From the NCBI GenBank assembly GCA_039814925.1, contig JBCCAH010000010.1, positions 21,606 through 85,605 on the forward strand: a stretch of 64,000 nt of DNA, in the 5' to 3' direction. Position numbers and translations under genes: made by a program. A model generated the notes under the pieces. The model searched no databases and was not told the origin of the DNA. It saw only the letters and a list, made by a program, of their open reading frames with translations. This document shows, one piece after another, positions 9,884 through 14,350 of the stretch; within the stretch, counting starts at the first letter, position 1; the number at the start of each line of letters is the position of its first letter. The DNA is from Pseudomonadota bacterium. GTDB lineage: Bacteria; Pseudomonadota; Alphaproteobacteria; Sphingomonadales; Sphingomonadaceae.

Positions 9884-11494
9884 TTAAGCCCCCGCCAACG
9901 CTTCCGCGATCAATTTGCGTGTGGGTTCAACACCATACAGCTTGATAAAGCTGCCCATGCGCGGGCCTTGTTCGCTTCCCAGCAGCGTTTCGTATTGCGC
10001 GCGGAACCAGTCGCGCAAGCTCTCGAACCCGTAGGCTTCGACCTTGCCGATTTCGTAGACCATGGTTTGCAGATCTTCGGCGCTCGCATCGGCGGGCGCT
10101 TGGGATAGCCGCGCGTCGAGGTCTTTGAGCGCTTCAATCTCTCCGCCCACCGGCGCGCGTTTTTTCAGCGTCGGCGCTAGAAAATCGCGGTTGTAGTTCA
10201 CCGCGCTCTCAATCAGCGTCAGCAGCACCGGATCGGTCACCGGCTGTCCGGTGTAGCTCGCGACATATTCGGCAAGGTTTTCCGGCGTCGCTTCAAGACC
10301 CAGCACAGACACGAGGTTGAGCAGCAGCGAGTACGGGACGCTCAAGGCGTCGCCCGCGCCCGGCGCTTCGGGCGTATCGATCCGCTCGTTCGCGCGCAGC
10401 AAGTGCCACACCGCGTTGCCTAGCTGTTTGTCGAGAGGTTGGTCGGCCAGACGCTCCCGGAACTGCCAGTAATCGTCGATCGCCTTCGGGATGACGCCCG
10501 CGTGCAATTGCTTTGCGCTCTTGGGGTTGGCGAAGATGTAGAAGCCCAGGCTTTCTTCCGAACCATAGGTCAGCCACTCCTCGATTGAGAGGCCGTTGCC
10601 CTTCGACTTGGAAATCTTGCCGCCTTCCGCGTCGAGGAACATCTCGTAGATCAGGCCCTCGGGCTTTTTACCGCCCAGAACGCGCGCGATTTTGCCCGAT
10701 TGCACGCCGCTGTCGGTCAAATCCTTGCCGTACATTTCATAATCGACGCCAAGCGCCACCCAGCGCATCGCCCAATCGACCTTCCACTGGCACTTGGATA
10801 GGCCGGAAAGCGCCGATTGCTCGACCACGCTGCCGTCTTCGTCGGTGAAGCGGATGATGCCTTCGGCGGCGTCGACAACCTCAATCGGCACTTGCAGCAC
10901 CGCACCCGTCGACGGGCTGACCGGCATGACCGGCGAATAGGTCTTGCGCCGTTCTTCGCCCAAGGTCGGCAGCATGATGTCCATGATCGCGTCAAAGTTC
11001 GTCAGCACCCCTCGCAGCGCGTCGTCAAACGCGCCCGAATTGTAACGGTCGGACGAGCTGACGAATTCGTAGTCGAACCCAAAGCGATCCAGAAACTCGC
11101 GCAGCATGGCGTTGTTATGGGCGGAGAAACTTTCGTGATCGGTGTCGAACGGATTGGGCACGCGCGACAAAGGCTTGTGCAGGTTCGCTTCGAGCAATTC
11201 CTGATTGGGCACATTGCCCGGCACTTTGCGCAAGCCGTCCATATCATCGCTGAACGCGACGAGGCGCGTGGGCTGCCCGGTCAGCGCTTCGTAGGCGCGC
11301 CGCACCAGCGAGGTTCTAAGGACCTCTTGGAAGGTGCCGATATGCGGCAGGCCCGAGGGACCATAGCCCGTTTCGAACAGCACCGGCTCGCCATTGGGTT
11401 TGCCGCCCTTCAGCCGTTTGGCCAGACGCTGGGCTTCCTGAAAGGGCCAGGCCTTGGAGTTTTGTGCGGCTTCGAGAAGGGTTTGATCTGTCAT
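9884..11494 (-). CDS. lysS: Lysine--tRNA ligase, class I
   Basis: ETGYGPSGLPHIGT (HIGH), DDMDGLRKVP, GKISKSKG (KMSKS), GPRMGSF. Confidence 0.96.
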   Translation of the reverse strand: MTDQTLLEAAQNSKAWPFQEAQRLAKRLKGGKPNGEPVLFETGYGPSGLPHIGTFQEVLRTSLVRRAYEALTGQPTRLVAFSDDMDGLRKVPGNVPNQELLEANLHKPLSRVPNPFDTDHESFSAHNNAMLREFLDRFGFDYEFVSSSDRYNSGAFDDALRGVLTNFDAIMDIMLPTLGEERRKTYSPVMPVSPSTGAVLQVPIEVVDAAEGIIRFTDEDGSVVEQSALSGLSKCQWKVDWAMRWVALGVDYEMYGKDLTDSGVQSGKIARVLGGKKPEGLIYEMFLDAEGGKISKSKGNGLSIEEWLTYGSEESLGFYIFANPKSAKQLHAGVIPKAIDDYWQFRERLADQPLDKQLGNAVWHLLRANERIDTPEAPGAGDALSVPYSLLLNLVSVLGLEATPENLAEYVASYTGQPVTDPVLLTLIESAVNYNRDFLAPTLKKRAPVGGEIEALKDLDARLSQAPADASAEDLQTMVYEIGKVEAYGFESLRDWFRAQYETLLGSEQGPRMGSFIKLYGVEPTRKLIAEALAGA

Positions 11495-11561
11495 AGTGAG
11501 GGGGTCTTTATTCTTCGGTTGCTGTGTTGCAAGCGCGAAGACGCGTTTCGGTTTCCAAAAA

Positions 11562-11751
11562 TTTCCTACCCGCTTGACAGTGTCAAGCGCCTGTCAAGCG
11601 CTCAAATCGAGCTTAAAATACTGATAAACATTGTTTTTATGGCAACTTCGCTGGCTTGACACTTGTCCAACACGAAACGCTTTTCGACAATTCATTCGGT
11701 TTACCTCTACGCCGGGGTGAGACCCTAGCCAGACCGCGCTGATGTAGGAAA
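11562..11751 (-). repeat. Non-coding dispersed element, copy B (inverted relative to copy A)
   Basis: TTTCCTAC 11562-11569 and GTAGGAAA 11744-11751 as terminal IR; perfect IR GCTTGACAG-N10-CTGTCAAGC 11572-11599; CTGATA 11621-11626; GCTTGACACTTGTCCAA 11654-11670. Confidence 0.65.
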
Positions 11752-11869
11752 GCGCTCCTGTACCAAGCCGCCTACGCAATCCTCTCACAAGAATCCCTCG
11801 CATGCGAAGAGCTACCCGTTCGTCGTATCAAGGTTGCGGATCGAGGCGTAGGAGTTAAGGCGAGCGCTG

Positions 11870-12241
11870 ATGACCGCGTCGCGTAATCATCCCTTTTTGC
11901 TGTCTATTGTGCTGCTATCCTTGGGCATGCGCGCGTTTTTTGGTGCGCCGTGCTGCCTGCCTATGGGGGCGAACGGCCCGCACGCAGGGCATCATGCGCA
12001 TCACGCTCATCATGGCTCCGCATCGCAAGCCGAAACGCCTGTGGGCGACAGCGATCCCGCGAGCGATCCTAGCGCCAATCCATGCTGTTCTGCGTGTTCT
12101 CCGCCGCTGCCGTCAGAGCCGGTTGAACTGATCGCGCGCACCGCGCCCAAATCTCTGCCCGAACCCACTCCGGTTCGTAGCCTGGCCACGCGGCCACCCT
12201 TCCCCGCCTACGAAGCGACAGGACCACCCGCGCTGATCTGA
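11870..12241 (+). CDS. DUF2946/CruR-like small Cys/His-rich protein
   Basis: N-terminal hydrophobic segment, PCCLP, HHAHHAHH, CCSAC (CxxC), Pro-rich C-terminus ending ATGPPALI; GGAG RBS. Confidence 0.72.
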   Translation: MTASRNHPFLLSIVLLSLGMRAFFGAPCCLPMGANGPHAGHHAHHAHHGSASQAETPVGDSDPASDPSANPCCSACSPPLPSEPVELIARTAPKSLPEPTPVRSLATRPPFPAYEATGPPALI

Positions 12242-12273
12242 CCCCACTTTTCAGATCAACTCGGAGACTTTTG

Positions 12274-13344
12274 ATGAAATTGCTTTTCAAGGGGGGCAGC
12301 GCGCTCGCCCTCGCTGGCTGCGTCTGCGCGGCCACCCCGGCGCTTGCCGATCACGACGACCGCCTCGACTCGCTCGACCACGCGCCGATTGGCGTTATGG
12401 GCGACCACCGCCACGCCAAGGGCGAATGGATGTTCAGCTACCGCTTCATGCATATGGACATGCGCGGCATCCAGATCGGCACTGACAGCGTGACGCCGGA
12501 AACCGTGGCGACCACCGTTCCCAACCGCTTTTTCGGCAATTCCGGACAGCCGCCCACCTTGCGCGTCGTGCCGACCGAAATGTTTATGGACATGCACATG
12601 CTGGGTGCGATGTATGGCCTTTCCGATCAGGTGACGCTGATGGTGATGGGCCATTACGTGTCGAAGAAGATGGACCATGTCGTCTTCGCGGGCGGCATGG
12701 GCACCAACCGGCTCGATACGTTTGAAACCAGCCCGCAAGGGATCGGAGACACCAAGGTCGCCGCTTTGATCGGCCTGACCGATAAGGTCCACCTCAACGC
12801 CGGTATCTCAATCCCGACCGGGTCCAACACGCAAACCGACGATATCGTCACGCCGATGGGCGGCAATCCGACCGTGCGCGTCCCCTATCCGATGCAGTTG
12901 GGATCGGGGACGTTCGATCTGGAACCGGGCGTCACCTATCGCGATCAGAACGACGCGTTTGGCTGGGGCGCGCAGGTGCGTGGTGTGATCCGAGTGGGAA
13001 ACGACGAAGGCTATTCGCTTGGTAACAAAGCGATGGCGACGGTGTGGGGCGCGGTGGCGTTGACCCCGGCGGTGTCGATCTCGGGCCGCGTGCAAGCGCA
13101 GACGCAAGGCCGGATCGACGGTATCGACCCGGTTGTCGTCGGGCCGATCCAGACCGCCAACCCCGACTTTCAGGGCGGCGAGACGGTCACCGCCTTTGCG
13201 GGCATGAATTTTGCGGTGACCAAAGGGTCGCTAAAAGGGTGGCGGCTTGGGCTCGAAGGCGGTTTGCCGGTTGTGCAGGACCTCAACGGTCCGCAAATGC
13301 CGACCGATTACACCTTCACGGTGGGTGTTCAGAAGGCCTTCTGA
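12274..13344 (+). CDS. Outer-membrane beta-barrel 'transporter' family protein (MetA/phenol-degradation-like) with His/Met-rich N-terminus
   Basis: Signal peptide, DHAPIGVMGDHRHAKGEWMFSYRFMHMDM, MDMHMLGAMYG, C-terminal Phe (VGVQKAF); start 12274 ATG or 12271 TTG. Confidence 0.75.
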   Translation: MKLLFKGGSALALAGCVCAATPALADHDDRLDSLDHAPIGVMGDHRHAKGEWMFSYRFMHMDMRGIQIGTDSVTPETVATTVPNRFFGNSGQPPTLRVVPTEMFMDMHMLGAMYGLSDQVTLMVMGHYVSKKMDHVVFAGGMGTNRLDTFETSPQGIGDTKVAALIGLTDKVHLNAGISIPTGSNTQTDDIVTPMGGNPTVRVPYPMQLGSGTFDLEPGVTYRDQNDAFGWGAQVRGVIRVGNDEGYSLGNKAMATVWGAVALTPAVSISGRVQAQTQGRIDGIDPVVVGPIQTANPDFQGGETVTAFAGMNFAVTKGSLKGWRLGLEGGLPVVQDLNGPQMPTDYTFTVGVQKAF

Positions 13345-13354
13345 ACGCAGAATG

Positions 13355-13384
13355 GCGCGGCGCGGGTTCCGGCTCGCGCCGCGC
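13355..13384. terminator. Hairpin between convergent genes, probable bidirectional terminator
   Basis: GCGCGGCGCGGG-TTCCGG-CTCGCGCCGCGC. Confidence 0.55.
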
Positions 13385-13385
13385 T

Positions 13386-13859
13386 TCATTCTATCTGCGA
13401 ATAGACCGCTGTGATTTGGCCGTTCTCCACCTCATACTCGGCGTAGGTGGTCAGGAACGGGCCGCCTTCGCCCAGTTGTTCCTTGGCGCGCACGAACACG
13501 CGTTCACCGGTCCAGCCGCTCTCTAGGATCTCTGGGACCGCTAGGATCGCCGAGTCCTCTTTGAAAAAGAACTCGTAGATCGCTCTCAGCTCTGCGCGGT
13601 TGTTGATATGCATCTGCGGTGATCGCACAATCACATCGGGGGAATAGCAAGCCAGCCAGCGTTTGAAGTTGCGCGCCCGCACCGCGTCGAGCGACAGTTG
13701 GATCACCTTGGCCGCCGCCATCATGCGCGCTTCGTCGTCGGCTTGCTGGGCGGGTGGTGATGAGGCTAGCTCTTCCTGCGCGCTCGCTGCTGTCGCACTG
13801 AACGCGAGAGAGAAAACGCACCCCGCTGTCATCCATGCCAGGCGAAGCGCCCAAGTCAC
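13386..13859 (-). CDS. NTF2/SnoaL-like protein with signal peptide
   Basis: GTGA overlap with the upstream stop; LDAVRARNFKRWLACYSPDV, YEVENGQI. Confidence 0.72.
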   Translation of the reverse strand: MTWALRLAWMTAGCVFSLAFSATAASAQEELASSPPAQQADDEARMMAAAKVIQLSLDAVRARNFKRWLACYSPDVIVRSPQMHINNRAELRAIYEFFFKEDSAILAVPEILESGWTGERVFVRAKEQLGEGGPFLTTYAEYEVENGQITAVYSQIE

Positions 13860-14350
13860 GGTCGAGACTCGTTCTGGGCCTCGATCTGACTATCGCTCTT
13901 GGCTTCAGTGTCCGCGCGCCGCACCCGTTTGGAGCGATTGCTCATTTTCACCTCTAGGAAGGCGATCTTGCCGTCTTTCACGAAATATTTCGCGTAGGTG
14001 CAGCAGCGCTCATATCCATCTTTAAAGGTGTAGGACATGGTGATGTAGACAAGGCCCCGCCTCAGGCCGCTTTCGATAACCTGGACCTTGTGCGGATCGT
14101 CGGCGAACGCGCTGGCGTAGTAGGCGCGGATGTCGGATTTCCCTTCGACGGCCTTGCCATCGACCATGACGATGGCGTCTTCGGTGAAGGTCGAGACGAA
14201 CGCGTCGAGGTCCCAGGCGCGGTAGATGTCGATATGCGCTTGCACCGCCTGGACGGCGGCTTCTTCATAGAAGTTGCGCGGCGGGCCGGCCGTAGCGGGC
14301 GCGGCGAACGCAGCTGTCGTTAGAACAAGCATCCATTTCCAACGCATCAT
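13856..14350 (-). CDS. NTF2/SnoaL-like protein with signal peptide
   Basis: IDIYRAWDLDAFVSTFTEDA, GKSDIRAYY, YFVKDGKI. Confidence 0.78.
   Translation of the reverse strand: MMRWKWMLVLTTAAFAAPATAGPPRNFYEEAAVQAVQAHIDIYRAWDLDAFVSTFTEDAIVMVDGKAVEGKSDIRAYYASAFADDPHKVQVIESGLRRGLVYITMSYTFKDGYERCCTYAKYFVKDGKIAFLEVKMSNRSKRVRRADTEAKSDSQIEAQNESRP

Follow-up and report, generated by a model that had tools for sequence, protein, structure and literature searches.

A putative metal-sensing leader in the CutF/CruR class, its compact stem-loop at the stop codon, and a predicted outer-membrane barrel gene downstream

Organization of the locus

The subject of this report is a pair of genes, a short open reading frame (ORF) and its downstream neighbor, in a 64,000-nucleotide (nt) stretch of a Sphingomonadaceae genome (assembly GCA_039814925.1, contig JBCCAH010000010.1; “the window” below is this whole stretch). 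The ORF appears to encode a new, diverged member of the CutF/CruR class of leader peptides (DUF2946, PF11162), with a compact stem-loop built around its stop codon; the gene behind it is predicted to encode a small outer-membrane beta-barrel. To our knowledge, the CruR/CutF class is the only known case in bacteria of transition-metal sensing by way of a nascent exported peptide, and two of its members have been studied. These two, CruR and CutF, have opposite signs and different outputs.

The comparisons draw on 65 leader homologues, all from Erythrobacter-like bacteria, collected by a word-indexed search, and on 47 loci from a scan of one genome per species, which with the window make 48; the leaders of these loci share 35-95 % protein identity. 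The loci are kin to one another, and the shuffle statistics and p-values given below therefore overstate independence. The parts of the gene pair, numbered from the first base of the window, are as follows.

11870..12241 (+): leader ORF, 123 amino acids (aa), stop codon included in the span; by its homologues and by Pfam and hhalign links a putative diverged DUF2946/CutF-like protein
11894..11950 (+): export-like hydrophobic N-terminal segment, F9-P27, with R21 and G25-A26-P27 invariant (alignment A1)
11951..11956 (+): first Cys pair, C28-C29, the CC of an APCC motif; in the alignment C29 is invariant and C28 nearly so
11981..12013 (+): His cluster H38-H48, HAGHHAHHAHH, of variable length in relatives; H45 and H48 nearly invariant
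12083..12097 (+): CxxC motif CCSAC, C72-C76; Cys residues invariant, codons free to vary
12098..12175 (+): linker, residues 77-102; 77-81 conserved, 82-102 of variable sequence and constant length
12110..12230 (+): part of the leader's 3' third that is rich in C (40-48 %) and poor in G (18-25 %); possible Rho-loading region resembling a Rho utilization (rut) site
12176..12229 (+): arrest-like module R103-P120, RxLxTRPPFPAYxA[T/R]GPP; amino acids conserved, synonymous change free
12230..12241 (+): last three codons and UGA; amino acids vary, nucleotides constrained; last codon always NNC, stop always UGA
12234..12258 (+): inner hairpin, with 5' arm 12234-12241 (including the stop), loop 12242-12250 and 3' arm 12251-12258; found in 48/48 loci
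12228..12264 (+): weak outer pairing in the window, CCG at 12228-12230 with CGG at 12262-12264 (taking in the first two G of the Shine-Dalgarno sequence)
12263..12266 (+): Shine-Dalgarno (SD) sequence of the barrel gene, GGAG, 4 nt past the 3' arm of the hairpin and 7 nt before the ATG at 12274
12274..13344 (+): barrel gene; its 356-aa product is predicted to be an outer-membrane beta-barrel of FapF/COG4313-like fold, with a Sec signal peptide and a mature protein whose N-terminal third is rich in Met and His

As read from the window sequence, the leader starts with the ATG at 11870 and stops with the TGA at 12239-12241. The initial annotation of this stretch, made from its letters alone, had described a 123-aa ORF with an export-like N-terminus, a His cluster, CSAC and an ATGPPALI tail, as well as a perfect 8-bp hairpin lying over the stop codon and ending 4 nt before GGAG; all of these are present where it had placed them. 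The export-like character of the N-terminus is predicted from conservation and from hydrophobicity (Kyte-Doolittle mean of 1.74 over the 19 residues F9-P27), and the segment has no clear AxA cleavage site or lipobox. A lipoprotein reading of this end of the protein was rejected: in G-A-P-C-C a Pro stands between Ala and Cys, which leaves no lipobox. The leader also agrees in three respects with a published rule set for CutF-like proteins (PMC9973294): its length of 123 aa (fewer than 150), its Pro-Pro at residues 119-120 (inside the last 15 residues), and a same-strand gene 32 nt downstream (limit 1000 nt).

Relationship of the leader to the DUF2946 family

Searched directly, the window leader matches no Pfam family at E<=1 and no NCBIfam entry, and in the scan of the alignment it did not match PF11162 (gathering score 23.7 bits) even at E<=10. 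Its relatives come closer. PF11162 is matched at E<=10 by 33 of the 43 aligned relatives, below threshold and over the full or nearly the full length, and is passed by two, P0038 and P0054 (25.6 vs 23.7 bits; profile positions 3-117 and 4-117 of 117), which are 41 % and 37 % identical to the window leader (E 2.8e-23 and 3.2e-20). Several homologues already carry a DUF2946 label in UniRef or NCBI. An hhalign comparison of the leader family (A1) with 22 canonical alphaproteobacterial DUF2946 proteins (A3) gave a probability of 85.6 % (E 5.6e-6) over a span running from CxxC through Pro-Pro and its three following residues to the C-terminus. Judged from these alignments, homology of the leader to DUF2946/CruR/CutF holds, by transitivity only; the CruR/CutF-like identity put forward in the initial annotation is supported by the two passing relatives, the 33 weak matches and the hhalign result.

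The published definition of the CruR family comprises an export signal, a CxxC motif, RAPP three residues before the end, a spacing of 45 +/- 2 and first position in a copper-related operon (PMC9426467). The window leader has this architecture, its export signal and its place in a copper-related operon being putative, with TGPP in place of the letters RAPP and a spacing that is fixed, at the different value of 40. The position of RAPP is kept (xxPP, three residues and a stop in 48/48 loci), the residue before Gly-Pro-Pro being Thr at 34 loci and Arg at 14. Canonical DUF2946 proteins end in RAPP, RGPP, RSPP or RDPP and about three further residues; within the window's subfamily the tails are ARAPPSLV or ARAPPVRV in distant members (P0190 and P0197, both ARAPP), ARGPP in others and ATGPP in others again, and the ARAPP and ARGPP sister proteins share the APCC...CCSAC architecture and the 40-residue spacing. 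Because these sister proteins have RGPP or RAPP at the same position, TGPP is best read as a derived RAPP, that is, the RAPP position with Arg-Ala replaced by Thr-Gly. The TGPP that the initial annotation had singled out as a non-canonical variant is indeed there, and it is not a separate invention: it falls within a RAPP/RGPP/TGPP series in the subfamily, and occurs too in L065, a protein that passes the PF11162 cut-off and ends in TTGPPSLI.

The subfamily appears to be narrow, since a profile search of 1.84 billion representatives recovered it as 29 clusters only; canonical DUF2946 proteins were not reached in that search. In a sample of the window's Genome Taxonomy Database (GTDB) family the leader was present in 2 of 151 genomes, in the window's own genus only. 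The available portion of the text of species Table S1 of PMC9426467 has no entry for Erythrobacter or Erythrobacteraceae, which is consistent with a subfamily lying below the threshold of the hidden Markov model. Pfam thresholds miss part of the leader family.

The window genome has two other weak matches to PF11162 and no more, L048 (G000:C27:22480-22842) and L049 (G000:C3:131-316), with E of 0.03 and 0.08; one has an in-frame TAG, and the translations are unlike DUF2946 leaders.

Conservation, fixed geometry and a split in constraint

At all 48 loci the leader is the first gene, ends in Y-x-A-[T/R]-G-P-P, three codons and UGA, and has its stop 29-40 nt before the start of the next gene. Counting from the second Cys of CxxC, [T/R]GPP follows after exactly 40 residues (77-116), again without exception, and C72, C73 and C76 (C73-S-A-C76 being the CxxC) are invariant both in alignment A1 and across the 48 loci.

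A gap-free codon table of the last 56 leader codons separates two kinds of constraint. For residues 69-81 (ANPCCSACGPTLP) and 103-120 conservation is of the amino acids, and the codons are free to vary: across the loci, every Gly codon and every Pro codon is in use at positions 118-120. In the window the GPP codons are at 12221-12229, and the leader tail is ...ATRPPFPAYEATGPPALI (YEATGPPALI). In the three codons that follow Pro-Pro it is the nucleotides that are constrained. The residues there include 11, 6 and 5 different amino acids, and the final codon is nonetheless always NNC, whether it encodes Ile (ATC, 22/22), Val (GTC, 15/15, where 33 % would be expected from the codon usage of the neighboring gene) or Thr (ACC, 7/7); for Leu at +1, 20 of 26 codons are CTC (24 % expected). 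A constraint at the peptide level that ends at Pro-Pro, succeeded by one at the RNA level, is the pattern to be expected of an arrest peptide linked to an mRNA switch. With one constraint stopping and the other starting at Pro-Pro, the 48 loci make an unusually clean natural data set.

A stem-loop across the leader stop codon

In the window the inner stem pairs TGATCTGA (12234-12241) with TCAGATCA (12251-12258), a perfect 8 bp around a 9-nt loop. RNAfold includes this hairpin in both the minimum free energy (MFE) and the centroid structure, in a 71-nt and in a 191-nt context; the segment 12215-12285 folds at -16.8 kcal/mol (z = -2.4), with the hairpin in its centroid structure. Folding of 12150-12340 gave no robust alternative partner for the SD. 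A scan for intrinsic terminators found none at the hairpin, where there is no T-run, and an Rfam scan of 11400-12500 at E<=1 returned no known RNA family.

The core of the inner stem is the same at 48/48 loci: an invariant CUGA, the C of the last codon followed by UGA, pairs with an invariant UCAG 8-20 nt downstream, the constancy of CUGA being due to a last codon that ends in C and a stop that never departs from UGA. The statistics for this stem were taken over a 10-pair helix on a MAFFT alignment. In it 83.8 % of cells are paired, compared with 9-47 % when the 3' partner is slid, and 28 cells show compensatory double changes, compared with 16.1 in column shuffles (0/500 shuffles were as high). 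The pair adjoining the core is A-U in 29 cases, G-C in 9 and G-U in 6. Conservation and covariation of the hairpin in homologues were among the checks by which the initial annotation had proposed to judge its reading; the hairpin is at the same place in every locus, and the pairs flanking the core covary.

Folding each locus by RNAfold brings out an outer helix in most of them, in which the codons after Pro-Pro (typically CUC CUG) pair with the SD; in an alternative register the Pro codons themselves (CCU CCG) do so, and the SD takes the forms CAGGAG, UAGGAG and CGGAG. The outer stem between the +1/+2 codons and the SD is 75 % paired, against 44-53 % when slid, a level reached in 0/500 shuffles. 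Pairing of the Pro-codon register (register B) with the SD was not above shuffles, because CC pairs trivially with GG. RNAalifold recovered only the inner stem from the MAFFT alignment, missing the outer one because it uses two registers. Pairing of the SD to the last 30 nt of the leader has a mean probability over loci of 0.84, compared with 0.50 after synonymous recoding, and the mean MFE is -17.6 compared with -14.2 kcal/mol in the recodings (Wilcoxon p ~1e-11, from related loci whose independence is overstated). Measured from the first base of the Gly codon, the anti-SD is at +4 to +14 nt. Both helices are necessarily kept from closing by a ribosome that has Pro119/Pro120 in its P and A sites, or that waits at the stop codon.

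The strength of the outer helix differs among loci. L015 is an example of a relative with a strong one (CTCCTGATCTGA ... TCAGATCTCAGGAG); in the window and its closest relative, L001, it is reduced to CCG with CGG, while in most relatives it is much stronger. Masking of the SD by the window hairpin is only partial. In the window the inner stem is longer (8 bp), and its 3' arm reaches -16 relative to the barrel start codon, and it may hinder binding of the 30S subunit.

The downstream barrel and its partners

The downstream protein has a standard signal peptide (...TPALA/DHDD). It gave no Pfam match at E<=1 and nothing usable in NCBIfam, and a sequence search of the Protein Data Bank (PDB) with its profile found nothing. 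PF13557 is not matched by the window barrel; some homologues, at 56-66 % identity, have a precomputed match to it, graded “faint” in the one locus for which a strength is shown. An AlphaFold2 model (predicted local distance difference test, pLDDT, 83.5; predicted template modeling score, pTM, 0.81) has as its best Foldseek matches FapF (5O65) and the COG4313 channel Pput2725 (4RL8), with E of 2e-13 to 6e-13 and template modeling scores (TM-scores) of 0.55-0.71. On this model the protein is a small TonB-independent barrel, in agreement with the non-TonB outer-membrane protein that the initial annotation had placed downstream.

The mature barrel holds 19 Met and 9 His in 331 residues, with 13/19 Met and 8/9 His in the N-terminal third; among 35 barrel homologues (57-83 % identity), 16 Met and 4 His columns (H36, H45, H47, H135) are invariant or nearly so. 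The family is uncharacterized and widespread, with more than 4,300 homologues, and its invariant Met and His residues make a metal channel likely. A search of the literature on the barrel family in a metal context found nothing relevant.

The leader is partnered by the barrel at 46/48 loci (one of them cut by a contig end). At the remaining 2/48, L041 (2501-5031) and L047, from Erythrobacter westpacificensis and Aurantiacibacter odishensis, it stands before a 705-aa TonB-dependent receptor (Plug and TonB_dep_Rec_b-barrel); the leader tails are ...RAYLATGPPSRV and ...RAYQARGPPSRV, and the hairpin, GUCUGA/UCAGAC, is the same. These receptor loci tie the leader subfamily to the classical CruR arrangement. 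Seen from the side of the barrel, Cys/His leaders with a Pro-Pro tail precede barrel homologues in 20/29 loci sampled across Pseudomonadota. The leader tail at a gammaproteobacterial barrel-homologue locus is ...RFPRAPPTYS, directly followed by the stop; that at a Pacificimonas locus is ...YLARGPPLFA, likewise followed by the stop, with a CUGA/UCAGA hairpin of its own. A second type of leader, of ~120-150 aa and counted among these 20, precedes distant barrel homologues (loci L097-L113) at a distance of 80-140 nt from the barrel gene, and carries ...C(R/F)IECGCGCH..., a conserved LAPH and a terminal PPP[KRE]xx. A tentative and somewhat doubtful extension of these observations is that the Met/His-rich FapF/COG4313-like barrel is a hitherto unrecognized TonB-independent outer-membrane copper channel, placed across Pseudomonadota under the post-transcriptional control of arrest-type leaders of two or more kinds (RAPP/RGPP/TGPP; IECGCGCH...PPP).

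A further locus, L114, comes from a genome of the same genus (G173:C1:116800-119600, 649-1212). Its leader (...NATGPPLLI, then the stop) and hairpin are intact, and ~890 bp of the barrel gene are missing. The junction runs from TTTCAGG directly into barrel codons ~296-356, and looks like a deletion between short TCAGG repeats.

Proposed mechanism and alternatives

What the comparisons show is homology, a fixed geometry, a division between protein-level and RNA-level constraint, and a conserved stem-loop; the arrest, the metal and the sign of the response we infer. The 123-aa ORF is, in our judgment, likely to act in cis as a metal-sensing leader peptide, a member of the DUF2946 (CruR/CutF) class, and to work as a CutF-like switch on the barrel gene. 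As the leader is translated and exported, its Cys/His motifs (APCC, His cluster, CCSAC) would become exposed. CCSAC lies 40 residues before TRPPFPAYxA[T/R]GPP, approximately one exit-tunnel length, so that it would just have emerged with the ribosome at Pro-Pro. There, or at UGA three codons later, the C-terminal module would slow or arrest the ribosome, which when so held would cover 12228-12241, the 5' side of the stem-loop; the 3' side lies just before the SD of the barrel gene, and in most relatives on it. With the ribosome in place the stem-loop would be open and the barrel gene translatable; with the ribosome gone the stem-loop would re-form and translation of the barrel would fall, with Rho-dependent polarity possibly next. 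Metal, most likely copper, binding to the emerging Cys/His motifs would alter the length of the pause. There is precedent for this in CutF, where a stem-loop shields the SD of cutO and is melted by stalling (PMC9973294; 10.1101/2025.02.05.636593). As far as sequence goes, the response could have either sign; copper acts oppositely on the two known stalls, prolonging that of CutF and relieving that of CruR (10.1101/2025.02.05.636593), and the barrel could be an importer or an exporter of metal. On the more doubtful reading of the barrel as a copper channel under arrest-type leaders, the Erythrobacter-type leader would also be evidence that Thr-Gly can stand in for the Arg-Ala of RAPP; it would then be the upstream TRPPFPAY context on which arrest depends, with the anti-SD encoded in the Pro-Pro codons and those after them.

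A number of points weigh against this reading. The case is one of sequence comparison and prediction, and copper, probably the metal, is named from the chemistry of the motif residues alone. Arrest by TGPP is not guaranteed, because the window has Thr-Gly where CruR has Arg-Ala, and in CruR the double change R139A+A140S abolished downstream expression (PMC9426467); the proline motif of CutF itself was not a strong intrinsic staller in a reporter (PMC9973294). The CUGA/UCAG core of the stem never varies, and hence contributes no covariation. In the window, SD pairing is 0.33, no better than the 0.38 of recodings, and the MFE is -15.5 compared with -14.7 kcal/mol, so that the robust part of the structure there is the 8-bp inner hairpin only. 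Perfect 8-bp hairpins with loops of 3-12 nt are also common in the window (34, against 19.4 +/- 5.9 expected from first-order Markov simulations), and for this reason the window hairpin alone is not beyond chance; its significance comes from conservation across the 48 loci. That same count, together with a window protein that has no direct Pfam match, is what could be said for the hairpin as a chance inverted repeat and the ORF as a hypothetical gene of no special kind, unconnected with the regulation of its neighbor. We regard this as extremely improbable: all 48 loci retain the position, the stop codon, the NNC last codon and the UCAG partner, in spite of the wide range of protein identity and of free synonymous change elsewhere, and because of this conservation a chance origin is excluded.

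Two further alternatives accept that the leader and the barrel gene are linked. In one, the output is of the CruR type: the paused ribosome would mainly protect the transcript from Rho, the hairpin having a secondary role (e.g., as an RNA polymerase pause site), and once the pause was released Rho would load onto the leader's C-rich 3' third and end transcription ahead of the barrel gene or within it. The C-rich, G-poor tract at 12110-12230 resembles what was mapped in cruR, a C>G bubble and rut site (PMC9426467), the leader family also precedes TonB-dependent receptors (2 loci), and SD masking in the window is weak; against this, the intergenic region is 29-40 nt in every locus vs 162 nt in cruR-bfrG, the C-richness is a consequence of encoding a Pro-rich peptide, and the conserved anti-SD/SD pairing and the codon bias have no role in a pure Rho model, which we consider unlikely. 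Rho-dependent output and a translational switch are not mutually exclusive: Rho may plausibly contribute, given the richness in C and poverty in G of the leader's last third, and the 32-nt gap and selected anti-SD pairing argue for translation initiation as the primary output. The variable, low-complexity middle of the leader protein, a motif position and PP+3+stop geometry that match experimentally characterized arrest leaders, and the rapid degradation of CutF after export (PMC9973294) all sit poorly with the other alternative, that of plain translational coupling with no regulated arrest. On that account the small protein would serve the barrel in the periplasm, as a metal-binding partner or chaperone; its conserved tail would be a protein-interaction motif, and the hairpin a means of tying barrel translation to that of the small protein. 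Conservation of the tail as peptide would be expected of a binding motif also, any ribosome reaching UGA would open the hairpin, and the leader and barrel genes co-occur tightly; even so, we think it improbable that coupling of this kind is the whole explanation. The genome that keeps the leader and hairpin despite a mostly deleted barrel gene (G173) argues strongly neither way.

Comparison with characterized systems

For the proposed CutF-like switch, the nearest counterpart is CutF itself (Rhodobacter capsulatus, cutFOG), also a small leader, exported in its case and predicted to be so here, with a Cys motif, a C-terminal proline motif and a short intergenic region, and with a stem-loop that covers the next gene's SD and that a stalled ribosome is proposed to open (PMC9973294; 10.1101/2025.02.05.636593). 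The motifs differ, being CxxxC and a PPP repeat in CutF and CxxC and GPP in the window leader. In CutF the stem-loop is a separate intergenic one, whereas here the anti-SD is in the last codons of the leader itself and the stop codon is in the stem; the CutF target is a Tat-exported multicopper oxidase, and that of the window leader an outer-membrane barrel whose SD is partially masked.

CruR of Bordetella pertussis (bp2923; DUF2946, PF11162) is likewise the first gene of an outer-membrane transporter operon and has a C-rich 3' part. Its RAPP stands three residues before the end, with a functionally important spacing (PMC9426467), and the Pro-Pro of the window leader is also three codons before the stop; the placement of cruR before a TonB-dependent receptor recurs in two of the window leader's relatives. 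It differs in having RAPP and a spacing of 45 +/- 2, where the window has TGPP (RGPP or RAPP in relatives) and 40, and a 162-nt intergenic region with Rho-dependent termination, where the window has about 32 nt and an SD-linked hairpin. The partner in the window is a TonB-independent barrel, and the window protein is below the Pfam threshold.

A more distant parallel is provided by SecM-secA of E. coli and RAPP-type arrest peptides, exported leaders with a C-terminal arrest sequence (RAGP in SecM). The ribosome stalled on SecM opens a stem-loop masking the downstream SD (10.1101/2025.02.05.636593), as in the switch proposed for the window; SecM senses secretion force rather than metal and has no sequence homology to the window leader, and the arrest in the window is a proposed one. 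The likeness of the window barrel to Pput2725 (PDB 4RL8) and FapF (PDB 5O65) is one of fold, a small TonB-independent barrel in the model. Sequence identity is only 12-15 %, and the invariant Met and His residues of the window barrel suggest a metal substrate, in place of the hydrophobic molecules or amyloid subunits of the two known proteins.

The CruR/CutF class, its motifs and both output mechanisms are thus already published, as are the DUF2946 labels of some relatives in UniRef. What appears to be new is the recognition of a subfamily below the threshold, marked by TGPP and a spacing of 40 residues; a stem-loop in which the leader's stop codon and last codons serve as anti-SD; and a widespread partner, the Met/His-rich FapF/COG4313-like barrel. 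The change of constraint at Pro-Pro and the invariant 40-residue distance from sensor to arrest motif, with the anti-SD under the paused ribosome, lend comparative support to the generality of the CutF stem-loop model, and the subfamily offers a compact system for testing it.

Surroundings of the gene pair

Two tandem genes for exported SnoaL-like (PF12680) proteins, at 13386-14350 (-), converge on the barrel gene, and the leader and barrel therefore form a two-gene unit. Between the barrel stop (13344) and the convergent SnoaL-like gene is a perfect 8-9 bp inverted repeat at 13356-13384; the terminator scan made no call there, and there is no T-run.

Upstream of the leader, on the coding strand, the motif TGTAGGA[AC]AGC is found at 11743-11753 (cf. 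GTAGGAAA), its one occurrence in the window (0.15 expected). It is present at 14/48 loci including the window, always in the same orientation, and in the 13 relatives it lies 60-126 nt before the leader start; it could be a promoter or a regulator site. The intergenic region between the leader and the divergent lysK (11562-11751) also contains nested palindromes (CTTGACAgTGTCAAG, about 11573-11587), several TTGACA hexamers and a sigma-70-like match at 11591-11619.

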